In this document: positions 19,184 through 46,028 of the stretch, piece after piece
How the letters are laid out: each line of letters opens with the position of its first letter
Numbering within the stretch: the first letter of the stretch is position 1
Origin: Pseudomonadota bacterium
Lineage (GTDB): Bacteria; Bdellovibrionota; UBA1018
Direction: 5' to 3'
Length of the DNA: 64,000 nucleotides
Assembly: GCA_027485695.1 (NCBI GenBank)
Contig: JAIXQO010000003.1
Span: 866,932-930,931, forward strand
Translations under genes and position numbers: made by a program
The notes under the pieces: model-generated
Database searches by the model: none
Seen by the model: only the letters and a program-made list of their open reading frames with translations
Told to the model about the DNA's origin: nothing

Positions 19184-19355
19184 CTGAGAAAATGTTTTTG
19201 TTCGTCTGTACAAGCGTGACGCGTTCGACTCGAAGAGGCGATGTACAGGATTTTGAGCGCACGATGCGCGAGAAACCTGACTCTCCAGTGGAGAGTTCGT
19301 AAGCAGTATGCCTGCGAAAAGGCAGGACGTCCGGCAGGCAAAAACATTTTCTCAG
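19184..19355 (-). ncRNA. intergenic structured element (copy 2): perfect 17-bp inverted repeat 'CTGAGAAAATGTTTTTG' flanking a homologous core, in the gspE-gspD gap
   Basis: 19184-19200 is the exact reverse complement of 19339-19355. The core 'AGCGTGACGCGTTCGACTCGAAGAGGCGA' matches copy 1 at 27 of 29 positions. Extra hairpins: ctctcc-agt-ggagag and cctgc-gaaaa-ggcagg. Confidence 0.45.
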
Positions 19356-22030
19356 CCTCCGAAATCCGCTGCTGGAGGAGGCATGGGAGCTTGATCCATC
19401 GGGTATCCACCGTAGTTCGGGTCTCCGTAGTATTCCGTGCCGGGAGGAGGAAGTCCTTCTGGCATCACCGGAACTTGTCCGGGTTGAACGGGAGGAAGGC
19501 CGTTCGCCGGAGCAGCAGTTCCCATGTTACCGTCGGTCGCGCGTGTTCCCTGCTGCTGTGCTGGCGCGGAGGGTGCGCTCAGACCACCCGCCGAGGCTTG
19601 TTCGGCACGGTTGTCGATGGAGAAGTTCGTTTGCGGACGATTGTTCTTGAGAGCGTTTAAGTCCGGCAGACTGCGGATGATATCGTCGCGTTTTGCACGA
19701 TTCGTATCGTTTCCACCGACGGACGTCTCGATGAAATCGTCACGCTCTTTGAGCTTCTGATCCAGAACTGTTCGGATCTTCTCATATTGGCGAATGATCT
19801 TCGGCGTGATGAAGAGCAGGAGGTTGATCTTGTCCGATTCATCCTTGGTGGCGCGGAACAACCATCCAAGCACTGGGATATCACCCAAGAGCGGGATCTT
19901 AGAAACGGTTTTGGTTTGTTTATCGCGCGTAAGGCCGCCCATGACGACCGTATCTCCATCGGCGACGGTGATCGTAGTTTTCGCCTGGCGCGAGGTCGTA
20001 GCTAGACCGCCTTGACCGAGTGCCCCGGGAAGTTCGCGACCCGAGAAGTCTTGAAGCTTGGCTTCGATTTCGAGTCTCACGAAATTCGACATCTTATTGA
20101 TCGAAGGTTTGAGTTTGATTGAGATGCCGACGTCTTCTTTGGCGCCTGGAGTGGCTTGCTGAATACCGTTTGTGAGTGTCGTTTGAATGGTCGGGATTTT
20201 TTCGACCGAGTCAAACAATGCCTCGGTATTATCGAGGGTCAGGATTTGCGGTGTAGCGAGAACCGTTGCGTTCGAATTGGTCTGCATCGCATTGATCAGG
20301 CCCTCGACCGAGCGTACTTCGACGTTTTGTCCGCCGACATTAAAGGTCTTGGTACCGCCGGCTTTGAAACCGAGAATAGCGCCTGTGGACGAAAGGGGAT
20401 TCGCGACAAATTTCGCTAGATCTCCGTTCACGACCGATCCTAGACCGTTTTTCGGGCTCATGACGTTGACTGACATATCGAATTTCTTACTGAGCGACAT
20501 CTCCATGATGACGACTTCGGCGTAAACCTGGTCGCGTGGGATATCGAGGCGGTTGACGACCCGCTGAACAGTCGCGAAATCGTTCGGCGTGGCGGTGACC
20601 ACGAGCGAGTTCGTCGACTTATCAGCCGCGACCTTGATGGAGCCTTCGAAGAGCGAGGCTTGCACGGGGTTTGATCCCGTTCCACCTGCCGCACCACCGG
20701 CGCCACCTGGACGAGCAGCCGAACCGGCGGAAGAGCCGAGACCGTTCAGAGTGTTGGAGAGAGCTTCGGCGTCTGCGAACTGCAAGTAAATGACGTGAAC
20801 CTTGCCGCCGCCGATTTGTGCGGGGAGGGTTTTGTCGAGTTTCTTGACGAGGTCGCGGACCTGATCGGCACCGCGGCTGTTCGCGTGAACGATCAAGTTA
20901 TTGGTGCGTTCGTCGGCGATCACCGTATTGATGATGCCGCCTTCTTTGGTCTTGCGAGCCGTGAATCGCGATCCACCTGAACCAGGGAAACGCGGGCCCG
21001 CAGAAGGTCCAGCCGCATTGCCCGGAATGAGTGTATCCACCAGTTTCGCGAGTTCGGCGGCCGAAGCGAATTTAACCGGGATGACTTCGATGCCGGCGTC
21101 GTAGCCCTCGACGTCCAAGATGTCGAGGAGCTTGGAGAGCTTGGCGATGTTTGAACCAGTGTCGGTCACGATGACCGTGTTGGTTTGTTCATAAGGAATG
21201 ATCCGCGAGTTCGCTGGCATGAAACTTCGGAAGTTACGAGCGACTTCGTCGGCGGACAAGTACTTGAGGCGGAATAGGCGAGTGATCAGGGCATCGGAGT
21301 CCGGAGATTTTGCGCCCGTGAACGTGCGGAGCTGTTTATCTCGCGCATCGCGTTGGCGAGCGATCCGGATGAATTTGCCCGAAGGAATGAGGGCAAAGTT
21401 CGTCATATCCAGGGCCGTCAAGAATGCTCTCCAGGCTTCGCGAACCGTGATCGGTGAATTCGAAATAATAGAGATCTTGCCTTTGACGTCCTTATCGAGA
21501 ATGAAATTCTTGCCCGTCAATTTGCCGAGTGCTTTTGCGATATCGAGAATATCGGCATCGGGAAAATTGAAATCGGTGATGAGTTCGTTGGAACCGGAGC
21601 CACCTTCGTCATCGACCATGGCATAGGGTTGAGCGGCGCTTCGAGGGCCCTCGTTCACGATGCCTTTTTGGCTGCCGCCGATTTGAATTCCACCACCACC
21701 GCCACGATTCGAAGCGGTGTCGTAGGAAACGCCGCCTCCGCCCCCGGCACTACCGCCGCCATCTCGAGGCGGAAGTTGGGAGTTGCCGTAGTCCATCTCA
21801 AAATCTTCGTCATCTTCGTCGAAAAAAGGCTGGCCTGGCTGAGACGGCGGGGCAGCGTATGGATTATTAAAAGATTTTCCGCCTGGTTGAAATCCCGCCG
21901 GCGGGTCAATCGCATGTGCAGGGCTCGAGAGGAGAACAATGATCGCGGTGAGGGAGACGAAGAGAATCGCGCCCCCCAGGCATCGGATGCATTTCAAGTT
22001 TTGTTCAGTCGGTTCCATACGCGTCTCCAA
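19352..22030 (-). CDS. gspD: type II secretion system secretin D (long Gly-rich low-complexity N-terminal region)
   Basis: Secretin C-domain 'VVMGGLTRDKQTKTVSKIPLLGDIPVLGWLFRATKDESDKINLLLFITPKIIR'. Signal peptide present. N0-N3 region interrupted by Gly-runs 'GGGSAGGGGGVS...NRGGGGGIQIGG'. Confidence 0.9.
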   Translation of the reverse strand: METRMEPTEQNLKCIRCLGGAILFVSLTAIIVLLSSPAHAIDPPAGFQPGGKSFNNPYAAPPSQPGQPFFDEDDEDFEMDYGNSQLPPRDGGGSAGGGGGVSYDTASNRGGGGGIQIGGSQKGIVNEGPRSAAQPYAMVDDEGGSGSNELITDFNFPDADILDIAKALGKLTGKNFILDKDVKGKISIISNSPITVREAWRAFLTALDMTNFALIPSGKFIRIARQRDARDKQLRTFTGAKSPDSDALITRLFRLKYLSADEVARNFRSFMPANSRIIPYEQTNTVIVTDTGSNIAKLSKLLDILDVEGYDAGIEVIPVKFASAAELAKLVDTLIPGNAAGPSAGPRFPGSGGSRFTARKTKEGGIINTVIADERTNNLIVHANSRGADQVRDLVKKLDKTLPAQIGGGKVHVIYLQFADAEALSNTLNGLGSSAGSAARPGGAGGAAGGTGSNPVQASLFEGSIKVAADKSTNSLVVTATPNDFATVQRVVNRLDIPRDQVYAEVVIMEMSLSKKFDMSVNVMSPKNGLGSVVNGDLAKFVANPLSSTGAILGFKAGGTKTFNVGGQNVEVRSVEGLINAMQTNSNATVLATPQILTLDNTEALFDSVEKIPTIQTTLTNGIQQATPGAKEDVGISIKLKPSINKMSNFVRLEIEAKLQDFSGRELPGALGQGGLATTSRQAKTTITVADGDTVVMGGLTRDKQTKTVSKIPLLGDIPVLGWLFRATKDESDKINLLLFITPKIIRQYEKIRTVLDQKLKERDDFIETSVGGNDTNRAKRDDIIRSLPDLNALKNNRPQTNFSIDNRAEQASAGGLSAPSAPAQQQGTRATDGNMGTAAPANGLPPVQPGQVPVMPEGLPPPGTEYYGDPNYGGYPMDQAPMPPPAADFGG

Positions 22031-23413: not shown

Positions 23414-24571
23414 TTAACGACGACGGGACGAAGGGAATAGATCCTCTCGGAGTGTCCAATCGACGGGGCCTTGGCTGAAGAACTGCGCCGTCCATTTTTG
23501 AACTTTGAGCGAGCTATTCGGTCGTTTGTAGCCCGAAACCCGGTGCATACGACGATGGGTTTCAAAAGAGATCTCATGGAAATCCATCCAGGCCTGGCGG
23601 TAGGGTTTCATCGTATCCACTGACTTGTCGTCATGGAGTACCAGGTCGAAGATGTGTGGCTTGTCGGTGCTCGACAACTGCAGTGTGAACTCGCCGGGAT
23701 TAAACCAGTTGATCACTTGTCTTGGACGGCGATCTTTCGAACTCAAATCGATTCCGACGTCGTAGCTCTGAGGAATGCCGAGCATATCGTAAGCTTCAGG
23801 ACCGATCTCTTGCTCGAATGCCTCCAGTGAAATGCTGATTCGATCGTACTCGGTCTTAGACTTCATCAGTTCCCAATAGAGCTCTTTGTCGAGCGTTCGA
23901 ACTTCTTTGAGTACTGCGTTCAAGATATCCTCGCGGGTGAGGCTCGGATTCCAGAGGCGTGCTTCACGATGAAGAATCTCGCGCGCGAAGGTCTCATCGT
24001 GCGGTTCAAGTTCATGAGTTTCGAGGTATTCCATGACGTAACCGCCGTTACCGGTTTTGTCGCCAAACTCTTGATCACGAGATCGTGAATCATCGCCATC
24101 CATCCCGTTACCGGTCTTATCGCCGCGAACACCCTCGGTGTTCTCTCGGTCAATTCCGTTACCGGTTTTGTCTCCGAAACTGTTCCCAGTCTTGTCTCCG
24201 AAACTGTTCCCAGTCTTGTCTCCGAAACTGTTCCCGGTCTTGTCTCCGAAACTGTTCCCGGTCTTGTCTCCGACACCGTTCCCAGTCTTATCTCCGACAC
24301 CGTTCCCAGTCTTATCTCCGACACCGTTCCCAGTCTTATCTCCGACACCGTTCCCGGTCTTGTCTCCGAAACTGTTCCCAGTCTTATCTCCGAAACTCTT
24401 TGTGCCTGGTTGAGACGATTCGCCTTCGTGACGTTTACGTCGAGAAGAGTCAGATTTTGCGGTGCTTTTGGTTGCATCGGTGGAGCGATTCTTGGGTCTA
24501 TCGCCTGCGTATACTCCAGTCGTGAGGACCAGAAACGCGCTGACTATGATCAGATGAACGGGGTGATTCAT
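23414..24571 (-). CDS. secreted protein with about 13 tandem 8-aa repeats (FGDKTGNS/GVGDKTGN) and a conserved C-terminal domain
   Basis: Signal peptide 'MNHPVHLIIVSAFLVLTTGVYA'. Repeat array 'GDKTGNSFGDKTGNGVGDKTGNGV...'. C-terminal globular domain of about 230 aa. Confidence 0.75.
   Translation of the reverse strand: MNHPVHLIIVSAFLVLTTGVYAGDRPKNRSTDATKSTAKSDSSRRKRHEGESSQPGTKSFGDKTGNSFGDKTGNGVGDKTGNGVGDKTGNGVGDKTGNGVGDKTGNSFGDKTGNSFGDKTGNSFGDKTGNSFGDKTGNGIDRENTEGVRGDKTGNGMDGDDSRSRDQEFGDKTGNGGYVMEYLETHELEPHDETFAREILHREARLWNPSLTREDILNAVLKEVRTLDKELYWELMKSKTEYDRISISLEAFEQEIGPEAYDMLGIPQSYDVGIDLSSKDRRPRQVINWFNPGEFTLQLSSTDKPHIFDLVLHDDKSVDTMKPYRQAWMDFHEISFETHRRMHRVSGYKRPNSSLKVQKWTAQFFSQGPVDWTLREDLFPSSRRR
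24045..24415 (-). repeat. perfect 24-bp in-frame tandem repeat array (core 24177-24410), units 'gtctccgaaactgttcccagtctt' / 'atctccgacaccgttcccagtctt'
   Basis: About 10 perfect and 4 degenerate 24-nt units are visible directly in the sequence. They create artefactual + strand ORFs (24085..24525, 24138..24413). Confidence 0.95.
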
Positions 24572-24574
24572 AAC

Positions 24575-25369
24575 CTAATTTTCCTTGCGTTTCTGAGTGA
24601 GGGGAAACAGCTGCATCGAGAGTCGGTAGACTTCGCTGCGATTCCCGGTTTCCATCAAATCAGATAGTTCGTCTTGGAAACGGCGGATACGTTCTTTGGC
24701 AATGGCCATTTTGGAGGGGTCGATCGCCATGGTGATCGTCGAAAAGTCTCGTTCATCGATTTCGCGTTCATTGAGGGCGTTTTTGGCGAGGTCGAGGTTT
24801 TCTTCGTAACATTTACGAAGGGACAAATCGACGATGTCATCCGAAGTGCGAACAGACTTCGTATCGCGAAGAAGGGCGCCATCGTCCGTTCGGCGAATCA
24901 AGCCAAGTTCCAAAAGACGAGACATGACTTCGGAAACTCGGTGGGTCGAGACGCCGAGTCGACGAGCGATCCACTCTTGGTCCGATTGGAAATCAGAGCA
25001 ATTCATCAATGATAAAAGGGCGTAGTGTTCCCACTCGGCGATCATGCGGAATTGTGCCGCCGAAAGCGCGAGGTAACGTGCTTCGTAGACGGCTTCCTCA
25101 ACGGTGAGTTCCATCCGGCGTTTTTCTGGGAAAAGCGAGAGCAGGTCGGCGCGCTCTTGTGGATCCGGAATGAGTTTCAGGGTAATTCGCTCAGCGAGAT
25201 CCTTTGAAACAGTTCGTTTTCCGTTCATGATCAGGCTCAGGGCTCCAGCGTTGATCCCGATGCGCTTGGAGTAAGCGCGGAGGGAAAATCTCGGATTGGC
25301 CAGCTGGATCTCGTACAGTTTCTTGCGGAGGGTTTGTTGGAGGGCGAGTTGTTCTTTCATGAAACGCAC
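24575..25369 (-). CDS. HTH-domain protein (XRE-like N-terminal HTH; resembles the TIGR02147 Fibrobacter/Bdellovibrio paralogous family)
   Basis: 'LRAYSKRIGINAGALSLIMNGKRTVSKDLAERI' is a helix-turn-helix. Size 264 aa. The family assignment is from memory and is uncertain. Confidence 0.55.
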   Translation of the reverse strand: MRFMKEQLALQQTLRKKLYEIQLANPRFSLRAYSKRIGINAGALSLIMNGKRTVSKDLAERITLKLIPDPQERADLLSLFPEKRRMELTVEEAVYEARYLALSAAQFRMIAEWEHYALLSLMNCSDFQSDQEWIARRLGVSTHRVSEVMSRLLELGLIRRTDDGALLRDTKSVRTSDDIVDLSLRKCYEENLDLAKNALNEREIDERDFSTITMAIDPSKMAIAKERIRRFQDELSDLMETGNRSEVYRLSMQLFPLTQKRKEN

Positions 25370-28372: not shown

Positions 28373-28651
28373 AAAAATCGATTCGCTTGCCGGACTCCTG
28401 TCCTCCTGAAAATCCCGCCGGTGGCGGGAACGCCTCACGCTTTTTCAGAAGTCGCGAAGTCGATTTTTTTACTCAGAGTAGATAAGTGGGCGACAGATTC
28501 ACAGGCGCTCTCCGCACTCCGGAGGAGCGCCTTTTTTTCTACTCGTCACGCAACGTCATCGGTTTCCCCTCGACATTGGGCGGTGTTTTCGTTTGAAATG
28601 CCTGTTCAACGCAATTCACTGATCTTGGTTCCCACCATGCTTGAGGGTTTC

Positions 28652-30715
28652 ATGAAATCATCCATTTTAGGACTGCTACTGATGTTGACCGCTACCGGTT
28701 CGAGCTGTGCTCACGATCAATTCCAATTTTTAGAAGAAGTCCAAGGCGCACGCGCCCTCTCTTGGGTGGATGGGCAGAACGCGCGTTCACAGGGAGTTTT
28801 GAAAAACGATCTACGCTACGCGCGCTTGGAGAATGATCTCCGCGCCATTTATCTTTCTCCGGCTCGCTTGCCGAAACCTTGGTTCGTCGGCGAGCAGCTC
28901 TATAATTTCTGGCAGGACGCGAACCATGTACGTGGGATCATCCGCCGCACGTCGATGGAGAGTTTTAAAACCGCGAATCCAACTTGGGAACTTGTGCTCG
29001 ATCTCGATGCGCTCGCGGCTTCGGAACGCGAGAACTGGGTTTATCAGAGCATGAACTGTTATGAGACGGAGCGTTGCCTGCTGTCGCTTTCGCGCGGGGG
29101 AGGGGATGCGGCCGTCATTCGTGAATTCGACCTCACCACAAAAACTTTTGTCGCGGGCGGATTTGAAATGCCCGAGAGCAAAGGCTCCGTCGACTGGATC
29201 GATCGTGATCACGTCCTGGTTTCTCCCGACCTGGGCGAAGCATCGATGACGACGTCTGGTTATCCAAGACAAGTGCGCGTCTGGACGCGGGGAGCGCGTT
29301 TTCAAGATGCGCCTCTCGTCTATGAGTCCCAAAAAGACGATGTTTATGCGGCAGGTGCCACGTATTTCCGCTCGGCCGGCAATGTGTCGGTGATTTCACG
29401 AGGCAAGACATTCTACAGTGGCGAAACGCTCATCCTGCGAAACAATACGACGCTCGAGAAAGTTCCGGTCCAAGACGACGCCATTTTTCAAGGCGTGTTC
29501 GATGGCTATGCGCTTGTATCGCTTCGCTCGCGTTGGATCACGCACGGCAAGAAATTCCAAGCTGGATCCTTGCTTGCGATTCCGCTGAACAACTTGCATG
29601 CGAAACCGGAGCTCGTCTACGAACCAAACGCGCGCTCGTCTTTGAGTCAAGTCGCGTCGACGAACGATCGTCTCTACATATTTGCGTTTGAAAACGTCCA
29701 GGGCAAACTGCTCTCGTACCGCAAGAAACAAAATCGCTGGGTGAGTGAGGCTCTCTCGCTTCCGGGTGCAGGCTCGATTGAATCGGTGAGTAATCAAGGT
29801 CGTGGGACGAAGCTCGTCGCATACTACGAGGACTTCCTGACCCCGGCGTCGCTTCTCCTGGTCGATACAGCAGCCTCGACACGTGTGGAGTCCATCAAGG
29901 CTTCGGTGCACTGGTTCGATTCCTCTCGTTATGAAGTGACCCAGAATGAATCGACGAGCGCGGACGGCACGCGCATTCCGTATTTCATGATCTCCCGCAA
30001 GGGCCTGATCTTGGATGGTAAGAACCCGACCCTTCTCTACGGTTACGGCGGATTCGAGGTCTCGATGACGGCGACGTACTCGGGAGGCTTGGGCAAAGCA
30101 TGGCTCGATCAAGGAGGCGTTTACGTGCTCGCGAATATTCGCGGAGGCGGGGAGTTCGGCCCGAGATGGCACGAGTCTGCGATCCTGAAAAATCGTCAGA
30201 AGGCTTATGACGATTTCATTTCGGTCGCCGAAGATCTGATCCAACGTCAAGTCACGACTCCTCGTCGCTTGGGCATCAAGGGCGGAAGTAACGGCGGACT
30301 CTTGGTCGGTGCGGTCATGGTGCAACGGCCGGAGCTTTTCAATGCGGTGGTTTGCGAAGTTCCTTTGCTCGACATGTTCCGCTACCACTTACTGCCGGCC
30401 GGCGCGAGCTGGATGGCCGAGTACGGAAATCCCGAAGACCCGGAAATGGCGGCAGTCATTGGCCGCTACAGCCCGTATCAAAACGTGCGTGCTGGCGTGA
30501 ACTATCCGAAGCCGTTTTTCATGACCTCGACCGCGGATGACCGCGTTCATCCAGGCCACGCTCGTAAAATGGCGGCTAAAATGGAGTCGTTTGGCGAAGA
30601 TTTTCTTTTCTTCGAAAACCGCGAAGGCGGCCACGGTGGAGCGGCGAACCTCGAGCAGAAGGTGAAAAAAGATTCGCTCAGCTTCACCTATCTCTATCAA
30701 AGACTCGTCGACTAA
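28652..30715 (+). CDS. prolyl oligopeptidase (S9A) family serine peptidase with signal peptide
   Basis: Catalytic-Ser motif 'GGSNGGLLVGAV'. C-terminal His region 'REGGHGG'. Signal 'MKSSILGLLLMLTATGSSCA' gives the chosen start at 28652. The ORF track begins at 28421. Confidence 0.85.
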   Translation: MKSSILGLLLMLTATGSSCAHDQFQFLEEVQGARALSWVDGQNARSQGVLKNDLRYARLENDLRAIYLSPARLPKPWFVGEQLYNFWQDANHVRGIIRRTSMESFKTANPTWELVLDLDALAASERENWVYQSMNCYETERCLLSLSRGGGDAAVIREFDLTTKTFVAGGFEMPESKGSVDWIDRDHVLVSPDLGEASMTTSGYPRQVRVWTRGARFQDAPLVYESQKDDVYAAGATYFRSAGNVSVISRGKTFYSGETLILRNNTTLEKVPVQDDAIFQGVFDGYALVSLRSRWITHGKKFQAGSLLAIPLNNLHAKPELVYEPNARSSLSQVASTNDRLYIFAFENVQGKLLSYRKKQNRWVSEALSLPGAGSIESVSNQGRGTKLVAYYEDFLTPASLLLVDTAASTRVESIKASVHWFDSSRYEVTQNESTSADGTRIPYFMISRKGLILDGKNPTLLYGYGGFEVSMTATYSGGLGKAWLDQGGVYVLANIRGGGEFGPRWHESAILKNRQKAYDDFISVAEDLIQRQVTTPRRLGIKGGSNGGLLVGAVMVQRPELFNAVVCEVPLLDMFRYHLLPAGASWMAEYGNPEDPEMAAVIGRYSPYQNVRAGVNYPKPFFMTSTADDRVHPGHARKMAAKMESFGEDFLFFENREGGHGGAANLEQKVKKDSLSFTYLYQRLVD

Positions 30716-30729
30716 CGATTTTTGAATTC

Positions 30730-30772
30730 AAAAAAAATGAAACGGGCGGCTCGGGAATTTCCCGTCCGCCCG
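30730..30772 (-). terminator. rho-independent terminator for the 30782-34252 gene (also placed to terminate the convergent peptidase gene)
   Basis: GC-rich hairpin acgggcgg...ccgcccg (30743-30772). On the minus strand it is followed by an 8-nt T-run, the complement of a30-a37. Confidence 0.6.
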
Positions 30773-30781
30773 ATCAAATGC

Positions 30782-33700
30782 CTATTTTTTCTGCACCCGA
30801 TAGAGTTTGTTTCCTGCCAGGATCACCAATGAGCCATCCGGCTGTTCCACGATTGAGCGGATGGCGTCCTTCTTCAGCAAGCTTTTCAGATTGAGCGTAA
30901 ATTCTGGAATCACCTTTTCAGAGGGCAAGCGTTCAAACGTCGAATCAGCTCGGTAAAAGCGAATGATCTGGTCGTCTCCCGCCAGCGCCACTTGGCCGTT
31001 TTTAAGCGCAACCAAGGAACTCTCGATCCACTTGACTCCGGGGATCTCGACTGCTTTTGAAATTCCACGATTGGCTGAACCGAAAAACAGTTTTCCGCTC
31101 TCGCTGAAAACAGCGATGGAATCCGTTGGAAACAGGATGCGAGCTGATTTCCCTAAAAAGCTCTCATTCCCCCGAGGTTCAGCCGTTCGGATAAAACGAC
31201 CTTCGAGATCGCTGAATGCAAGTCCAGGTTTTCCTGGGAACACCACGGTTGATCGTCCGATTTGTGTCGGCAGTGAGCCCTCGAGAGAATATCCAGGTAT
31301 TGATGTCACCGATTCTCCTTGGACATCTGTTTCGGGCTGTTTACGAATCTGCGCAATAACGGCCTCATTTCTTGGATAGTTTGTCCCTGAGACCAGTGCT
31401 AGATCGGATTTAGTAAACACAAATTTCGATTTGGCGTATCGAGCGGTACCCGGATTGATCGCATTGGAGAGTCTCGGAGGATTGCCCTCATAGATAAGAA
31501 TAGCGCCGGCCTTATTAGTCGCCAGTACCTCGCTGTCGTTAGGAAATACTGTGAGCGTCTCTCGCACAATATCGCCGTTGAAATTAATCTCAGGTGCTAA
31601 AAATTTGAACGAAGTCGTGTTGGTTTTTACTCCAAAAAATAATGGCGGATTTCGCTTAAAGTTAAAGGTGTTTTTGATTCTTCTGATATCAGACGGCTTT
31701 TTCGGGTCAATGGAGACCAACTCAGAGCCGTTTGCGATGACGAAAGTTCCATCTTGAAGAGCCAGTGTTGAGAAAGTGGTGCTGAGGCTTCTCGAAGACT
31801 CTAGCGCTAAAACGGTCATTTTTTGGCCTTCTGGTGAATAGAGAACCCAGTTACTGTCACTGTCTTTCACAATAAAGTAGCCCTCGTCATTGATGATGAG
31901 TTCGGCCCGTTGATCAAGTTCGGTAGCAGTAGATACGATGGTCGGAGTTTCAAAACGAAGAGGAGAAATCACGGGCTTAGGGCGATCAATGACCGGAGCC
32001 ACCGTCCGAGCTTTGAAACTGACTGTGTTTTTGGAAGGTGTGCCGAAAGGGGAGCTTTTTTTGTCGGTTGCGGCACTTCGGTAATTCAATTCAATTTGAG
32101 TGAGGCCGAGTCCTGGGTCTGTATTGCCTTGAGTTGGTTTCTTCGGTGTGAATTCCAGTTTAAAATCTGCAATTTGAAAATTACGAGAGTTTTTCGAAAG
32201 GATCTTCGAGAGTTCCTCTAAGAGTTCAGGTGACATTCGAATCGACGTCAAGAGATCGTATTCATCCTCAAAGGATAGTCCAGGTTCTACGCGAATCAAA
32301 AAACCTGAAGCAGTGCCCTTAAAAAAGCGTACTCGCAGCTGATCACTCGGCAGGCTGCCCGGAACCACGCGGATGTTTTGGAAGATAGCAGCTAACTGTG
32401 ATTTCAAGCTGGTTTCGATGAGGGCGGCAGGGGGTTTATTCAGTGTTCTTTGTTTATAGTCCAAACGATAGTCCCGTACGTCACTGGGGTCGCCCTTGGA
32501 AGTTTCGATCGTAAATCGAGGCTTGCGAGTCGTGGGGGATTTCGGAGCTTTGGGTTGTATAACGCCGCCGAGATATTTGGCTAAATCTTGGGTTCTGGGA
32601 GCATTGTTGAACAGAGATACGACGTTCGCATCCACCCCTCGGAGATCTGCGTCTGTGACCAATCGTCCAGCCGCAGGAGCAGTGAAATAGATGTTGAGAT
32701 CTTTTCCATAGAGTGGGCCAGCTGCACTGCAGACCAAGCGTTTTCCCAGTGTTGACCCTCTTCTTGGGTTACTGAATGGTTTGAGTACGTCTGATTCGCG
32801 GTAACTATTCAGCGTCCCAAATGCGCGTCCGCGCAAATCCTTGGGTGTGAGATTACTTAGGAGCTCAGGATTGCCATCTTGAAATCCTGTGGCCACAATC
32901 ACGCGGTCGAACTCTTGAACCGAATCATCATTAAATTTAACCTGAAGTTTCCCGCTAGGAAGGCGAGTGACTGAAATGGCTTTTTTCGTGACCGGTTTTA
33001 AGACCTCGGATTTTACTCCACCGATGATCGGTCCCGAGTATCGAGAGCGAAGGGAATTGAGTAGCTCTTCGCAGGTGGTTTTGGATTGACCGGACCAGGT
33101 GATCGACCGAGGACGACCGGTTTGAGCGGTCGATTGACCGTAACTATCTTCGGGGCCGAACCCGAGGAAATCTTCTATGACTGTATTGCCAGAGTCTCCC
33201 GCACCAATAACGAGGATATCTTGATTCGCGTACTCTTCGAATGCCTTGCCATTGGTGTTTTTGTAGCGAAAGTATCCGGTCGCGCTGTCGAACACCGATG
33301 CTTGGCTCGGATCACGTAGCGCACGTTTCCGCTCTTCGCGATAAAATGATCGAGTTGCTTCATCAAACGCGCTTAAATCGAGTTCTCTCCCGAGGCCACT
33401 GGAGACAACCAGATGATCTGTATAGAAGTACCCGGCACTGGTGGTGATTCGAAAATCAGTTGGCCAGCCGACGGTATCTTCTGGAGGGAGCAGAGCCCGG
33501 TGCTCAACGGTATAAGCTTCTGTATTGAAAACAATTGAAGACTCCCGAAGGATTCCTCGGTTGATCGTCGAAACATCGGCGAGATCCTGAGCGTCTGGAT
33601 ACCCTGCAGCTGAAAAATCAGTAATTTGGACCGGAAGTCCGGCCAGGGCATTTTGATTGCCCACTCCACGTTGCGAGATCTGATTAATCGTTCCAGGGCG

Positions 33701-34252
33701 ATTTAAGCTATTGAGACGAAACCCAGGAGTATTGAAGGTATTGGCAACTGAGGAGCTCGCCTCGATCGTCAGAGTTTTTAGATTGGGATTCGCTCGCGCA
33801 AGGTTGTAATCGAATACAACACCTTGCGGGCCGGCGCCCAGAGTGATGATGTCATAGACCTGGGCGTCCATGTCGATTTGCCCCCGTTTGGTTGCATCGG
33901 CGACGCGTAACTTGATCTGATCGGAAATGATTCTCAAGTCTTGAAGCAGAGCTCGGACCATTTCCTTACGAGATTTTTTGTCTTTGATGAACGGAACGAA
34001 AAACTGTCGAATACTGTAGTCCTGGCTATTCGGCGGAATGCCGTAGGTATCGGACTTACTGAATGTAGCCAAATTGTCGTTAATTCCCCACGCGGCGTAG
34101 GGGTCACGTAAGAGCCAATCGGCCGTTGCCTGGGTGCAGTCTCCCAGTTCAATCGGTGGATCTGCGGTGAGAGCAGGGCTCGCAAACAGCAGGGAGACCA
34201 GGACGTAAATGGCGAGTTTTACTCGTGCGAAATGGCGAATCGGGCGTTCCAT
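30782..34252 (-). CDS. large exported multidomain protein: N-terminal two-dinucleotide-binding flavoprotein (FMO/N-hydroxylase-like) module + C-terminal beta-rich domain
   Basis: Signal/TM 'VKLAIYVLVSLLFASPALTA'. 'DIITLGAGPQGVV' (GxGxxG), 'DILVIGAGDSGNTV' (second GxGxxG) and 'RVIVATGFQ' (ATG motif) occur in the order seen in class B flavin monooxygenases. The C-terminal ~600 aa is repeat/beta-strand rich. Confidence 0.6.
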   Translation of the reverse strand: MERPIRHFARVKLAIYVLVSLLFASPALTADPPIELGDCTQATADWLLRDPYAAWGINDNLATFSKSDTYGIPPNSQDYSIRQFFVPFIKDKKSRKEMVRALLQDLRIISDQIKLRVADATKRGQIDMDAQVYDIITLGAGPQGVVFDYNLARANPNLKTLTIEASSSVANTFNTPGFRLNSLNRPGTINQISQRGVGNQNALAGLPVQITDFSAAGYPDAQDLADVSTINRGILRESSIVFNTEAYTVEHRALLPPEDTVGWPTDFRITTSAGYFYTDHLVVSSGLGRELDLSAFDEATRSFYREERKRALRDPSQASVFDSATGYFRYKNTNGKAFEEYANQDILVIGAGDSGNTVIEDFLGFGPEDSYGQSTAQTGRPRSITWSGQSKTTCEELLNSLRSRYSGPIIGGVKSEVLKPVTKKAISVTRLPSGKLQVKFNDDSVQEFDRVIVATGFQDGNPELLSNLTPKDLRGRAFGTLNSYRESDVLKPFSNPRRGSTLGKRLVCSAAGPLYGKDLNIYFTAPAAGRLVTDADLRGVDANVVSLFNNAPRTQDLAKYLGGVIQPKAPKSPTTRKPRFTIETSKGDPSDVRDYRLDYKQRTLNKPPAALIETSLKSQLAAIFQNIRVVPGSLPSDQLRVRFFKGTASGFLIRVEPGLSFEDEYDLLTSIRMSPELLEELSKILSKNSRNFQIADFKLEFTPKKPTQGNTDPGLGLTQIELNYRSAATDKKSSPFGTPSKNTVSFKARTVAPVIDRPKPVISPLRFETPTIVSTATELDQRAELIINDEGYFIVKDSDSNWVLYSPEGQKMTVLALESSRSLSTTFSTLALQDGTFVIANGSELVSIDPKKPSDIRRIKNTFNFKRNPPLFFGVKTNTTSFKFLAPEINFNGDIVRETLTVFPNDSEVLATNKAGAILIYEGNPPRLSNAINPGTARYAKSKFVFTKSDLALVSGTNYPRNEAVIAQIRKQPETDVQGESVTSIPGYSLEGSLPTQIGRSTVVFPGKPGLAFSDLEGRFIRTAEPRGNESFLGKSARILFPTDSIAVFSESGKLFFGSANRGISKAVEIPGVKWIESSLVALKNGQVALAGDDQIIRFYRADSTFERLPSEKVIPEFTLNLKSLLKKDAIRSIVEQPDGSLVILAGNKLYRVQKK

Positions 34253-34355: not shown

Positions 34356-34811
34356 CTATTCTTTTTGGACCGTCAATTGAGCGCTCCGTCGATTTCCAGA
34401 GGTTGAAATCGAAACGGTGAGGGGCGTGTAACGAGCGCTGAGTTGCTCATAGGGACGACCGTTTGCGACGAAAAAATCTCCTTTGACCATTTTCTTCAAG
34501 ACCTTGCAGTATTCGGGTCCACAGCGACCGGTCAAAACGTTGTCGACGTTGTTTTTGCCGTCTCGTTCCTGAGAAAACGCGGCCAGGCGGTAGTTCTCAC
34601 GGTCGAATAGTTCGACGTACCAAATGACGTCTGTTTGATGATTGCCGAGAAATCCGTCGGTCGAGGTTACGCAGACTTTGACGACCTCATCACCGAGCTG
34701 AATCGGTCCGAGTGTGCGAGTGGGTTGGTCGAGCGGAAAACAAAGCACAGCCATGGCAGGGCTTGCGGCGAAACTCAAAAGACACGAAGCGATCAAAGAA
34801 AACGACTTCAT
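34356..34811 (-). CDS. small secreted hypothetical protein (151 aa)
   Basis: Signal peptide 'MKSFSLIASCLLSFAASPAMA'. An imperfect 12-bp hairpin (34318-34348) lies between it and the downstream large gene. Confidence 0.55.
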   Translation of the reverse strand: MKSFSLIASCLLSFAASPAMAVLCFPLDQPTRTLGPIQLGDEVVKVCVTSTDGFLGNHQTDVIWYVELFDRENYRLAAFSQERDGKNNVDNVLTGRCGPEYCKVLKKMVKGDFFVANGRPYEQLSARYTPLTVSISTSGNRRSAQLTVQKE

Positions 34812-42268: not shown

Positions 42269-44104
42269 GTGATTCGAAAGTATTGGACGCAAGGAAAATG
42301 CCTAGTCAGCTGGTCGTTGATCGCCTCAGGTGTAAATTCGGCGTTCGGCTACGATCTTGAATCGACCATCGAGCAATTCGAAAAATCAGCATTTTCAAGC
42401 GTATCGACGTGCGAGGAGTCGCTGTCGGCTGACAGCGTTCTATCCGAACGAAGACGTGAATTGAAATCGAAATCTCGATATGGAATCGAACAGGTTCTCG
42501 AAGCGGCGGGGCTCACTCCAGAGAAAAGAAGGCTCTATCAAGCGCGTCGTGTGGTGGGGGATTATTACGACGAAGTGCCATTGAAAACGCCAGACTTGTT
42601 CCTGAAAAGGCTCCGTTCAATTCTGACGGAAAGAGAATACTTAGATGTATCTGGGCAAATAAAGGCGTGGAATAGAAACGAGTTATCGGCATTTAATGAA
42701 CGTTTAGAAGCCCTTTTTTTTGATTTGTTTTCTGACCTCAGTAGCCGGCGATCCGAGTTGAGTCTCATTGAAATGCGCAAAGAGCTGCTGGACCTTTGTC
42801 GACTGTACTCGAATATCTTTGATCGGAGTAGTTCGGTCTACGAGCGCGCAATCTGGATCTCTCAATGGGCAAGTAAACAAGAGGATCGGGCACGTTTTGC
42901 GTATGAAACGATGCTGAGTTTTACTCGGGATCGGGAGCCAAAGCTGGTCCTGGGTTTCATGCAGGCGAACCCATTTTTTAAAGATGCAGTTCGTTTGAGG
43001 CACGATCCGACTCTCATAGTGACGACTGCTTTTGAAAAAGAGACACCTAACGCAGCAGTTGTGAGCTTTTACAGAAATATGCGCTATTCCGATGAAGCTT
43101 GGTTGGCCATGAGCGTAGACGCACGAAAAGTCATTCTGGATAAAATGAGTGATCACTTTGTATCTACGGTCTACGATACTGAGAAATTGCGGTCCACTCC
43201 AGATTACTTTGCGAATAAGCTTAAAACAGAGGGTATGGTAAGTGGACGAGTTATTTTTGAGTTCACACAAGATGGATACGCAATTTCTCCAACTGCGACG
43301 ATTCGTCGTATTGAAGAAGTCGCAAAGATTACCAACGAGACTCACTCCTTTCATGGCCATATCGTCGGAGAAGTTCCCAGCTCGGATCCACAAGAGTTCT
43401 TGAAATTCGATGCGTGGTTTAAAGATGCTAACTGGCAGCTCATGTTTCAAGGATTTGAAGAAGGGCTTTTTCCAAATAAATACACTCAAATTAAAAAAAC
43501 AAGTTATTGGGAAACATTTGGTGACGCTGCCGAGAACAAGTTTCTTACGTTGGGCTATAGGACTGGTATCTATGGAAACGCTCGAACACCCGGCTATATT
43601 AAGGTCGGCTTGGAACTTCGAGATCCTACCCGAAAAATCGCTCGATGGGATGGGTTGATCCAACGGATAGCGGAAGTGATTGCTCAGCGGAAGTGGAATG
43701 TCCTGGCTGATAACTTATCGACCGGCATCAAGAGTCTCAAGATCGATGAGATCGAGTCTATACTTTGGAGCGCGGGCATCGAACAGGAGTATATGATCAA
43801 GATGCTGGTGAGCGAGGAATCAAATTCCCGTTCGATCGGCGTACCTTTGTCTAACTTTCGAGAGTTGATGATCACTAACTGGAAGAATGGAAAATCGCGG
43901 CCTATTCCCGGCGCTGTCATGGATCGTTTGGATCGGGCCAGAAAAATATATTTAGATGGCCTTGTTCATCTCAGTCGAGAAATAGCGATATTGGATCGAC
44001 GTGGTGAATCTTATTCGAGCGAAGATATTCGGAGTGCGATTCTTCACTGGGTTACCGAATGGGCTCAGCAAGCGAGGCCAGCTGAAATTTTTTCGGCGCT
44101 ATGA
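42269..44104 (+). CDS. exported hypothetical protein, paralog A of a tandem pair (611 aa)
   Basis: Shares long collinear blocks with the next gene: 'REPKLVLGF..PFF..AVR...DPTLIVTT.FEKET', 'HSFHGHIVGEVP', 'GLELRD.TRK'. Confidence 0.65.
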   Translation: MIRKYWTQGKCLVSWSLIASGVNSAFGYDLESTIEQFEKSAFSSVSTCEESLSADSVLSERRRELKSKSRYGIEQVLEAAGLTPEKRRLYQARRVVGDYYDEVPLKTPDLFLKRLRSILTEREYLDVSGQIKAWNRNELSAFNERLEALFFDLFSDLSSRRSELSLIEMRKELLDLCRLYSNIFDRSSSVYERAIWISQWASKQEDRARFAYETMLSFTRDREPKLVLGFMQANPFFKDAVRLRHDPTLIVTTAFEKETPNAAVVSFYRNMRYSDEAWLAMSVDARKVILDKMSDHFVSTVYDTEKLRSTPDYFANKLKTEGMVSGRVIFEFTQDGYAISPTATIRRIEEVAKITNETHSFHGHIVGEVPSSDPQEFLKFDAWFKDANWQLMFQGFEEGLFPNKYTQIKKTSYWETFGDAAENKFLTLGYRTGIYGNARTPGYIKVGLELRDPTRKIARWDGLIQRIAEVIAQRKWNVLADNLSTGIKSLKIDEIESILWSAGIEQEYMIKMLVSEESNSRSIGVPLSNFRELMITNWKNGKSRPIPGAVMDRLDRARKIYLDGLVHLSREIAILDRRGESYSSEDIRSAILHWVTEWAQQARPAEIFSAL

Positions 44105-44159: not shown

Positions 44160-46028
44160 TTGAAACATTATCTCCAACCGTGCTTTCATTTGATGATGGC
44201 GCGACAGCGCAAATTACTCTTGGCATTATGGCTATCATTAAACTTGCTGCTATGTTCGTCCAAGATTTCTGTCGCCTACGACTGGGAAAGCGGCACGTTA
44301 GATGAGTTGGATCGTTCGGCGCTTTCTCCACTCTCCGGATGCGAGGAGGCGATCCTTAGTTCTGAAACAGTCCTGAGGGTTCGCCAGGCGGCGCGGTTAG
44401 AGGCTCGCCGTGACCTCGAAAAAGTATTGGAATCAGCGGGGCTCCCTCCCGAAATCAGAAATCAATATCGAGCAGCTCGAGTAAACGCTCGATCAGAGAG
44501 CCTATTTGGCGCGGTTTTTTCTTGGGCGAGCTTCAATCGGGAGATTCAGGCGGTCCTGACGGATCGCGAGTTTGCACTCGTTTCAGGTGTCGCGAAGACC
44601 TGGAGCAATGATTTGATGAAAGAGCTCGGCCAACGGCTGATGTACGATTTTTTGGCGGATATTCAGTCTCTCAAACGCCAAAGTGAGTTTTGGAGCGTTC
44701 AAAGACAAGAGCTTGGACTCCGACAACTCATGCGGACTTATTCGTTAGTCATTGAAAAAAATACCTCGGTTTATGCTCGCGCCGCGGAGCTTGCCGCGCA
44801 AGCGACGACTGATGTGCAGGCAAGACGGGTATACGAACTTCTCCTTCGTTACTCAAGGGATCGCGAACCTAAACTCGTGCTCGGGTTTTTGGACGCAAGC
44901 CCGTTTTTTCGGGAGGCGGTTCGGTTCGAGGATGACCCGACTCTCATCGTGACCACGTCGTTTGAAAAAGAAACCTTCCAAGCAAAAATCCTCAAGTACT
45001 ATAAGCACTCAAAATTCACCAACCAACAGTGGCGTTTCATGAGTGATGAGCAACGGGTAAGCGAGATCTCCGAGTTTCGAGAGCTCATCGGTTACTTGCA
45101 CGGAACCAATAAAACACCCACTGCTCCGTCATATTTCGCCGAGAACCTCAAAAGCGAAAGCATCAAGAACGGTCGACACCTTTACGAGGTCGTGCAAGAT
45201 CGCTACGCACTTACGCCGCAGGAAACCATTCGTCGTGTGCGCGAAGTCGCGGCGATCACCGGTGAAATGCATTCATTTCACGTGCATGTAGTCGGCGAAG
45301 TTCCCAAGGTATCGGAACCGGAGTTCTCACGGTTCGCGATCTGGCACTGGGAAGCCAATATTCAGAGTATGTTGCAGGGAATGGAAGAAGGACTCTTTGG
45401 TACGACGTTGACGGGCTACCCGGTGCGGCCAATTGAGGGTGGTACATTTGCTCGGTCGGATATGAATAAGCTTCTCACCGTTGGTTATCGGCGAGATATC
45501 TACGGCTATTCGCTCCGTCGTGGATTCATGAAGATTGGTCTCGAGCTTCGCGATGTCACTCGCAAATTGGAAGTTCTTTCGGATTTGATACTGAGATTTT
45601 CACGAGCGATGGCAGGCCGAATTTGGAAAAATACCGGTGTAATCTCTTACTCTTCGCTCGCCCTGCCCGATTCCAATCTGAAATTCATTTTGAGGGGGCG
45701 TGGAATCTCTGAGGAGGCGATCGATCAGTTGAGATTCACGCCGAATTATCCGGCCGTGCTGCAGCTTCCACTTCTCAACTTTCATCAAATGAGAGTGGTG
45801 GATTGGAAAACGGGTCAAATGCGCTCGATCGACGAATCCGTTTTAGCGCGTTTAGACGAAGGTCGTGAATACTACTTGAGTGGTCTAGTCGCCCTAGGTA
45901 AAGAAATCGACCAATATCGAGAAAGTGGAACTCCCGTCTCAAATGTGGAGCTCTCCAGTGCAATCAAAATGTGGCTCCAGGAATGGGCGGTGCGATACCG
46001 TCCTAGAGAAATCTATTCTGCTTATTGA
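44160..46028 (+). CDS. exported hypothetical protein, paralog B of a tandem pair (622 aa)
   Basis: Signal-like 'RKLLLALWLSLNLLLCSS'. The start may be the internal 'MMARQRK' near 44193. Paralogous to 42269-44104. Confidence 0.65.
   Translation: MKHYLQPCFHLMMARQRKLLLALWLSLNLLLCSSKISVAYDWESGTLDELDRSALSPLSGCEEAILSSETVLRVRQAARLEARRDLEKVLESAGLPPEIRNQYRAARVNARSESLFGAVFSWASFNREIQAVLTDREFALVSGVAKTWSNDLMKELGQRLMYDFLADIQSLKRQSEFWSVQRQELGLRQLMRTYSLVIEKNTSVYARAAELAAQATTDVQARRVYELLLRYSRDREPKLVLGFLDASPFFREAVRFEDDPTLIVTTSFEKETFQAKILKYYKHSKFTNQQWRFMSDEQRVSEISEFRELIGYLHGTNKTPTAPSYFAENLKSESIKNGRHLYEVVQDRYALTPQETIRRVREVAAITGEMHSFHVHVVGEVPKVSEPEFSRFAIWHWEANIQSMLQGMEEGLFGTTLTGYPVRPIEGGTFARSDMNKLLTVGYRRDIYGYSLRRGFMKIGLELRDVTRKLEVLSDLILRFSRAMAGRIWKNTGVISYSSLALPDSNLKFILRGRGISEEAIDQLRFTPNYPAVLQLPLLNFHQMRVVDWKTGQMRSIDESVLARLDEGREYYLSGLVALGKEIDQYRESGTPVSNVELSSAIKMWLQEWAVRYRPREIYSAY

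Follow-up and report, generated by a model that had tools for sequence, protein, structure and literature searches.

What a protein that appears to leave the cell does with the dinucleotide-binding motifs of a flavoenzyme is the question raised by one gene in a 64,000-nucleotide (nt) stretch of contig JAIXQO010000003.1 (Pseudomonadota bacterium, assembly GCA_027485695.1; the whole stretch is called the window below). Two-Rossmann flavoenzymes of the N-hydroxylase, flavin monooxygenase (FMO) and thioredoxin reductase (TrxR) types are regarded as cytoplasmic and driven by reduced pyridine nucleotide (NAD(P)H), while the product of this gene, 1156 amino acids (aa) long, starts with a putative signal peptide. 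We consider it fairly probable that the protein is a Sec-exported, modular, flavoprotein-like oxidoreductase of a new Bdellovibrionota family, which would bind flavin adenine dinucleotide (FAD) after export and be targeted or tethered by its C-terminal domain. It seems, then, that an enzyme fold has been relocated outside the cell and combined with a variety of C-terminal domains.

Signal peptide, motifs and predicted fold

The open reading frame (ORF) starts at the first possible start codon past an upstream stop, so no N-terminal extension is possible. In layout, its N-terminus matches a Sec signal peptide: first a basic n-region (MERPIRHFARVK), then a hydrophobic segment (residues ~12-30, the only one in the protein), then SPALTA|D, with predicted cleavage after A27 or A30. 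Neither a twin-arginine (RR) pair nor a lipobox occurs in residues 1-30. A preliminary description of this DNA had reported an N-terminal signal or anchor, and the basic n-region, lone hydrophobic segment and SPALTA|D site bear this out.

That description had also placed the GAGPQG, GAGDSG and ATG motifs in the order and spacing of class-B flavin monooxygenases, and here too the sequence agreed: 211 aa separate GAGPQG from GAGDSG and 104 aa separate GAGDSG from ATG. When the protein was shuffled 20,000 times, two glycine motifs 150-260 aa apart, each behind a hydrophobic strand, arose in no shuffle, and one such motif in 2.4%. A hydrophobic strand precedes both glycine motifs (YDIITL in the case of GAGPQG, which is followed by E164 at the end of beta-2). 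The GAGPQG region matched the FAD Rossmann region of Thi4, GMC and TrxR entries, GAGDSG aligned to GSGQSAAE of N-hydroxylases and GGGDSA of TrxR, and DRVIVATGF, which contains the ATG, aligned to DVVIFATGY of IucD.

An AlphaFold2 (AF2) model of residues 31-760, based on a 49-sequence alignment (predicted template modelling score [pTM] 0.84, mean predicted local distance difference test [pLDDT] 76.8), contained four N-terminal helices (model residues 8-19, 21-36, 46-59 and 62-92; pLDDT 70-89), two Rossmann domains and an alpha/beta tail. The motif regions are therein predicted to form two Rossmann-type domains of the two-dinucleotide-binding-domain flavoprotein fold and, with this pTM and the motifs at residues 139-144 and 350-355, the module falls within that superfamily by predicted fold. 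The preliminary description had named findings that would speak against its reading, among them a lack of Rossmann folds, and a cleavable signal peptide together with missing FAD/NADPH contact residues. Both motif regions were modelled as Rossmann-type domains, and the N-terminus is signal-like, with cleavage predicted by rule.

Searched against the PDB with Foldseek, the AF2 model gave 764 matches at E≤0.001, the best 50 of which were all two-dinucleotide-binding-domain flavoproteins. Matches listed included a TrxR-like FNR (2.9e-13), TrxR, AIF, SidA and a bacterial FMO; the highest query-normalised template modelling (TM) score among them was 0.34 (SidA), and target-normalised TM-scores reached 0.69 (the TrxR, Bdr/YpdA and small class-B FMO group). 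The nearest solved structures were low-molecular-mass thioredoxin reductase, small class-B FMOs, Bdr/YpdA and the N-hydroxylases NbtG, DesB and SidA (structural comparison, figure per entry: TrxR 3cty, 20.8; SMFMO 4a9w, 20.0; Bdr/YpdA 7a76, 19.7; 3d1c, 19.0; NbtG, 16.5; DesB, 15.6; lysine monooxygenase 5cqf, 15.4; SidA, 15.3). Structural alignments were longest (294-323 residues) and identities highest (up to 18%) with the N-hydroxylases.

The family, its C-terminal domains and the genomic setting

HMMER, run exhaustively over 1.84 billion representatives of clusters at 50% identity, returned 450 relatives of 400-1800 aa at E≤1e-3, of which 197 reached E≤1e-10 and 49 reached E≤1e-30; E-values for the closest ones were 1e-95 to 1e-30. 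In every case the shared part covers query residues ~70-570, often continuing to ~700-745. Its conserved blocks are, in the first half, the N-terminal helices with their Cys, YDxVIVGAGxHG, FxINSSNR, PGxGNxNE...Q..D and TGLG, and, in the second, GxGDSA...E, Y...Q...WxGQxxxxC...RxRY, DxxIxATGF, GPxAG, NxVSIFNNAPR and the tail of ~150 aa. The 1156-aa protein keeps every block from signal peptide to alpha/beta tail, save for an Ala in place of G525. Judged from these alignments, the N-terminal helices, the flavoprotein module and the tail form a conserved cassette that defines a large, unnamed, uncurated family. In a set of 130 relatives that are ~25% identical to the query, conservation was at least 80% at both glycine fingerprints and at about 40 further positions (G139, 100%; G141, 98%; G350, 97%; G352, 98%; D353, 95%; S354, 88%; G456, 98%), and such near-invariance argues against the decayed enzyme fold that had been offered as one possibility. 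Of 172 relatives, 88 retain the D(x)3-h-ATG-[YF] motif.

The family has no curated Pfam or NCBIfam model; among 49 relatives there were marginal generic matches to Pyr_redox_2 (35/49), NAD_binding_9 (35), DAO (34) and Lys_Orn_oxgnase (17). Records name its members "hypothetical protein", and a literature search found no publication on the family. A word-index homologue search with the 1156-aa protein retrieved only the protein itself (P0001, from one NCBI contig of 1.19 Mb), as did one with a 36-sequence full-length alignment, in which candidates were probably swamped; the same search with relative P0036 yielded 48 usable relatives. A metagenome scan with the closest subfamily gave no match. 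Almost all located members were from Bdellovibrionota: the nine loci found in species-representative genomes comprised eight in Bdellovibrionales, Bdellovibrio or Bdellovibrionaceae metagenome-assembled genomes (MAGs) and one in a "Myxococcales" MAG, and one further relative is named as from a Bdellovibrionales bacterium.

Export recurred throughout the close members. By a hydrophobicity test that five cytoplasmic proteins of the window failed, 41 of the 50 closest representatives had a signal-like N-terminus, and most of the others were visibly signal-bearing or N-terminally truncated; export signals were found in 112 of 172 members overall, their frequency dropping in the most distant ones. 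A lipobox-like motif was present in 24 of the 172 and an RR motif in only six. Export by Sec or lipoprotein signals is therefore, to judge from N-terminal sequences, a trait of nearly all close members, and the exported version proposed at the outset gained support from the query and its relatives alike.

The protein has only three cysteines (residues 39, 394 and 508). Cys394 does not vary within alignments A1 and A2 and is kept in 88% of the 130 relatives, in which a second Cys commonly lies 70-135 residues upstream of the first glycine motif: 85 relatives have both, 29 have only Cys394, 16 have neither and none has the N-terminal Cys alone. This correlation suggests that a Cys39-Cys394 disulfide probably links the N-terminal helices to the loop past beta-2 of the second Rossmann domain, and such a pair fits an oxidising compartment.

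The half of the protein behind the module (Table 1) had been described as a 600-aa C-terminal repeat domain. It is instead divided into the conserved family-specific tail, to which Pfam gave no match, a linker, and a beta region of ~370 aa with weak repeats. This last region (residues 790-1156) had no Pfam match at E≤10 and no similar sequence among 171 relatives. A single-sequence AF2 model of residues 761-1156 contained strands only and, at a pLDDT of 36.6, is unreliable. BLAST found no internal repeat in residues 790-1156; the best off-diagonal self-alignment in the C-terminal region scored 66 (41.2 ± 6.9 in shuffles; z ~3.6), and six or seven hairpin-like segments of the form x[DN]Gxhhhhxxxxhhxh are consistent with what is possibly a beta-propeller.

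Relatives carried other C-termini. Of the closest, P0002, P0003 and P0005 have long helical-repeat C-termini and no beta-rich region, and P0004 is a 541-aa fragment. Three relatives, among them P0034 and P0154, are fused to a formylglycine-generating-enzyme-like (FGE-sulfatase) domain, P0025 has ankyrin repeats, and P0036 and P0039 have tails that looked propeller-like by eye. In relatives of 1000-1800 aa the cassette is internal or C-terminal with unassigned domains on either side, and a Pfam search of seven long relatives with an internal cassette found no known fused domains. From these comparisons, the C-terminal additions of the family vary, and the cassette is joined to what look like interchangeable domains. 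The FGE-sulfatase and ankyrin fusions might hint at protein or small-molecule targets.

Table 1. Features of the gene for the 1156-aa protein, in window positions
Feature	Position	Strand	Basis or remark
Whole ORF, 1156 aa plus stop codon	30782..34252	-	ORF call
Putative Sec-type signal peptide, residues 1-30, MERPIRHFARVK / LAIYVLVSLLFA / SPALTA	34163..34252	-	Only hydrophobic segment
N-terminal four-helix region, residues 38-122, with conserved Cys39, R82, R95 and S110	33887..34141	-	AF2 and conservation
Cys39 codon, in N-terminal helical region	34136..34138	-	
Two-dinucleotide-binding-domain (FAD-type and NAD(P)H-type) flavoprotein-like module, residues 131-564	32561..33862	-	
First dinucleotide-binding motif GAGPQG, residues 139-144	33821..33838	-	Motif and conservation
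Second dinucleotide-binding motif GAGDSG, residues 350-355	33188..33205	-	Family consensus GxGDSA
Cys394 codon, just past beta-2 of second Rossmann domain	33071..33073	-	Followed by conserved R402-x-R404-Y405
DRVIVATGF, residues 449-457, a D(x)3-h-ATG-[YF] motif	32882..32908	-	ATG at residues 454-456
Family-specific alpha/beta tail domain, residues ~580-726	32075..32515	-	AF2 pLDDT 55-82; relatives' alignments
Pro/Ser/Lys-rich linker, residues 727-789	31886..32074	-	Composition; AF2 pLDDT <50 at model's C-terminal end
Lineage-specific all-beta region, residues 790-1156 (~370 aa)	30785..31885	-	Weak blade-like repeats
Intrinsic terminator, GC-rich hairpin and U-run	30730..30776	-	Between convergent genes

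The gene stands alone, because neighbourhoods differ at every locus examined and tandem copies are absent; a conserved operon was rejected on these grounds. Siderophore or thioredoxin genes were not found nearby, and the window held no paralogue of the protein and no Rfam match. The clean terminator of its own that the gene had been credited with is real (hairpin at 30743..30772 followed by UUUCAUUUUUUUU, 10 nt past the stop codon; -23.9 kcal/mol, z -3.07) but lies between convergent genes. On its other side is an S9 prolyl-oligopeptidase gene (28421..30715, + strand); A-runs and T-runs flank the hairpin on both sides, and it may terminate both transcripts. Upstream, at a distance of 100 nt and on the same strand, a 151-aa orphan protein with a signal peptide is encoded at 34356..34811 (- strand) behind a good Shine-Dalgarno sequence. 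The 1156-aa gene itself has no obvious Shine-Dalgarno sequence, and an imperfect hairpin without a T-run lies between the two genes.

Elsewhere, the window encodes many orphan secreted proteins. Adjacent paralogues of 611 and 622 aa (42269..44104 and 44160..46028, both + strand; 38% identity, E 2e-125) have signal-like N-termini and no Pfam match, and form a further orphan secreted family that has been duplicated in tandem. A 385-aa secreted-looking protein (23414..24571, - strand) contains a repeat at 24168..24397 (9.6 copies of a 24-nt unit, 94% matches) encoding the octapeptide GDKTGN[GS][FV], with weak Pfam likeness to the prion copper-binding octapeptide model. An ORF at 19352..22030 (- strand; 892 aa, with long Gly/Pro/Ala-rich low-complexity ends) was assigned by eye from its translation as a GspD-type secretin, and 24575..25369 (- strand) encodes a DUF4423/winged-helix regulator (E 5.9e-45), a domain common in Bdellovibrio-like genomes, which fits the taxonomic placement suggested by the relatives.

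Possible functions outside the cytoplasm

In the reading that we favour, five parts would follow the cleavable signal peptide: the four-helix region, the two-Rossmann module, the ~150-aa tail, the linker and the ~370-aa all-beta region. The first Rossmann domain carries a putative FAD-type and the second a putative NAD(P)H-type fingerprint; the module would bind FAD after export and act as an oxidoreductase or oxygenase outside the cytoplasm of its producer, with the Cys39-Cys394 disulfide stapling the N-terminal helices to the second nucleotide domain and the variable C-terminal domain tethering or targeting the module. Electrons might come from pyridine nucleotide set free by permeabilised prey; alternatively, the second domain may now serve another purpose. 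Passage of FAD into the periplasm is documented for the Bfe FAD exporter of Shewanella (PMC3551548), which makes it plausible that FAD is loaded once the protein has been exported by Sec. Cofactor binding, the disulfide, the site of action, the electron donor and the substrate are what we infer from sequence and models, as is action on prey, every step of it from the conserved fingerprints onward. The combination is unusual, with both nucleotide fingerprints kept, systematic Sec or lipoprotein export, hosts that are mostly predatory Bdellovibrionota, and shuffled C-terminal domains. It would point to undescribed extracellular or in-prey flavin chemistry, and it poses the question of where the flavin and electrons of an exported family come from. 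With no Pfam or NCBIfam model to catch them, members are labelled hypothetical or given generic Rossmann matches.

Several observations weigh against an active, exported oxidoreductase. There is normally no NAD(P)H to draw on outside the cytoplasm, and the usual export route for cofactor-loaded flavoproteins is twin-arginine translocation (Tat), whose signal (S/T-R-R-x-F-L-K) is absent from the 1156-aa protein. The signal cleavage site was judged by eye from von Heijne rules, and the predatory lifestyle of the source is presumed from its relatives only. Cys394 lacks an N-terminal partner in the 29 relatives counted above. The closest relatives, P0002-P0005 (alignment A3), have a first motif of the form GxGxxD (GAGPHD, GSGPHD, GAGVHD) and not GxGxxG. 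Position 525, the Gly of the GPxAG motif in 98% of relatives, is Ala in the 1156-aa protein alone. The protein departs further from the family consensus at P195, P337 and K344, so this copy may be less constrained than its relatives.

These substitutions and the GxGxxD motif of the subfamily would also suit a pseudoenzyme, in which the fold, no longer catalytic, would act as scaffold or binding module within a secreted protein of adhesin-like character. Fusion to a large, non-catalytic-looking beta region and the lack of an FMO motif, CxxC or N-hydroxylase signature residues point the same way. However, the fingerprints, TGLG, ATG and a group of polar residues are 80-100% conserved in the 130 relatives, a pattern typical of ligand-binding and catalytic sites and not of scaffolds, and the 1156-aa protein retains G139, G141, E164, G350, G352, D353, S354, D449, T455 and G456, which makes loss of function unlikely in our view. 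An enzyme that has dispensed with NAD(P)H also seems rather improbable. In such a secreted oxidase or dehydrogenase the FAD domain would oxidise a substrate and pass electrons to O2 (yielding H2O2) or another acceptor, and the second domain would have a substrate-binding or structural role, as in periplasmic sulfide dehydrogenases or secreted amino-acid oxidases. Pyridine nucleotides are absent outside the cytoplasm, export is family-wide, and an invariant, family-specific polar cluster (F173, N181, S182, G198, N199, N201, Q209 and D212) has no counterpart in N-hydroxylases or TrxR, all of which would be in keeping with this idea. Yet GxGDSA, at 88-98% conservation, lines up with the NADPH motifs of both N-hydroxylases and TrxR. 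Only NAD(P)H-dependent enzymes occur among the best structural matches to the whole module, and R402-x-R404-Y405 follows beta-2 where the 2'-phosphate-binding arginines of related enzymes would sit.

The preliminary description had also allowed for an inner-membrane-anchored cytoplasmic protein, here an ordinary class-B N-hydroxylase or TrxR-type enzyme held by an uncleaved anchor. The single N-terminal hydrophobic segment, for which cleavage is only predicted, and the likeness in fold and profile to N-hydroxylases and TrxR would allow it. Under the positive-inside rule, however, the positively charged n-region predicts that the N-terminus stays inside and the bulk of the protein lies outside. 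This basic region, the lipobox-like signals of 24 relatives and the correlated Cys pair make a cytoplasmic, membrane-anchored topology unlikely. With no siderophore or thioredoxin genes nearby, and no CxxC, N-hydroxylase signature residues or PF13434 match in the protein, we regard the whole alternative as highly improbable. A bolder proposal, which we think doubtful, is that of a predator-specific secreted flavin monooxygenase, a "warhead" that would be delivered to the periplasm, to the cell surface or into invaded prey. FAD would be loaded there, and the NAD(P)H of the prey would be used to oxidise or hydroxylate a prey molecule, for example an envelope amine, lipid, peptide or protein side chain, with the C-terminal domains (beta-propeller-like, FGE-sulfatase-like, ankyrin or helical repeats) choosing the target. 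If true, no earlier family of class-B-like flavin monooxygenases would be known to work outside the cytoplasm of its producer.

Comparison with known flavoenzymes

Under the favoured reading of an exported oxidoreductase, the cassette still has to be placed among enzymes of known type. Sequence searches reached little beyond the first nucleotide domain: in Pfam, the first Rossmann motif drew a borderline match to Thi4 (26 bits) and residues 333-460 a sub-threshold one to Pyr_redox_3, NCBIfam and PDB sequence searches with the 1156-aa protein found nothing past the first Rossmann motif, and PDB searches with the whole protein, the module alone or the family profile were likewise confined to that motif. 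Profiles were also compared, using two nine-sequence profiles of similar depth taken from annotated plasmid genes, one of SidA/IucD/PvdA monooxygenases and one of thioredoxin reductases, in which the IucD and TrxB sequences were verified (100% identity in each case). By hhalign, the family matched the N-hydroxylases with a probability of 96.8% (E 2.9e-10) over 296 columns, from the first Rossmann motif to the ATG motif, and TrxR with a probability of 95.6% (E 1.3e-8) over 167 columns, stopping at the second glycine motif. With single sequences, the match was limited to the D(x)3-h-ATG-[YF] block for IucD and to the first Rossmann motif for TrxB. An N-hydroxylase-like reading is, on these profiles, the better of two close options and slightly preferred to thioredoxin reductases. 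TrxR-like enzymes score nearly equally by fold and profile. Taken together, the alignments indicate that the cassette is distantly homologous both to class-B flavin monooxygenases (SidA/IucD/PvdA type) and to TrxR-like enzymes, and belongs to neither.

The N-hydroxylases (SidA, IucD, PvdA, NbtG and DesB; PF13434) share with the cassette the order of an FAD-type Rossmann domain, an NADPH-type Rossmann domain (GxGxSA) and D(x)3-h-ATG-[YF]; DRVIVATGF also fits their D(x)3(L/F)ATG(Y/F) pattern. Weak matches to PF13434 (Lys_Orn_oxgnase) were found in the 17 relatives noted above (best E 7.4e-7), while in the 1156-aa protein Pfam at E≤1 detected neither PF13434 nor PF00743. The invariants GxGxGPxN, W42/M46 of FxWHPGM, and H168 (IucD numbering, alignment A4) are not kept; at these sites the family has GaGVHG, a gap or NSSNR, and TFED (at the His of FH-S). 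Identity as a lysine or ornithine N-hydroxylase was ruled out by the missing PF13434 match and the missing invariants. The class-B link first proposed is thus retained in part: the nearest structures include N-hydroxylases, whose profile match, running over both nucleotide domains to the ATG motif, is the best one, but membership of the lysine/ornithine N-hydroxylases or FMOs is not supported. Unlike the cytoplasmic N-hydroxylases, the 1156-aa protein is predicted to be exported, with additional helices at its N-terminus and a tail domain at its C-terminal side, and its gene lies outside any siderophore cluster (neighbours are the orphan secreted protein, the S9 peptidase, gltX and cysS).

The FMO-identifying motif FxGxxxHxxx(Y/F), or its Baeyer-Villiger monooxygenase (BVMO) variant ending in W, is absent from the 1156-aa protein and occurs in only 2 of 172 relatives, and no FMO-like (PF00743) match was found among the 49 relatives searched in Pfam. 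TrxR, Bdr/YpdA and the small class-B FMOs (SMFMO 4a9w and 3d1c; Pyr_redox_2/Pyr_redox_3) differ in other ways. A motif scan found no redox-active CxxC or CxxxxC in the 1156-aa protein, the C-terminal GD motif of the TrxR group is GPxAG in the family, and the protein is predicted to be exported and is about twice the size of these enzymes.

For a flavoenzyme at work outside the cytoplasm, the closest parallel is with periplasmic flavoproteins loaded after Sec export, such as FccA of Shewanella. FccA belongs to a different fold class and draws its electrons from haem domains, whereas the 1156-aa protein has no haem-binding CxxCH (no CxxC was found) and, by motif scan, no ApbE-type flavinylation motif. 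The analogy is one of function only, that of an extracytoplasmic FAD enzyme exported without a Tat signal.

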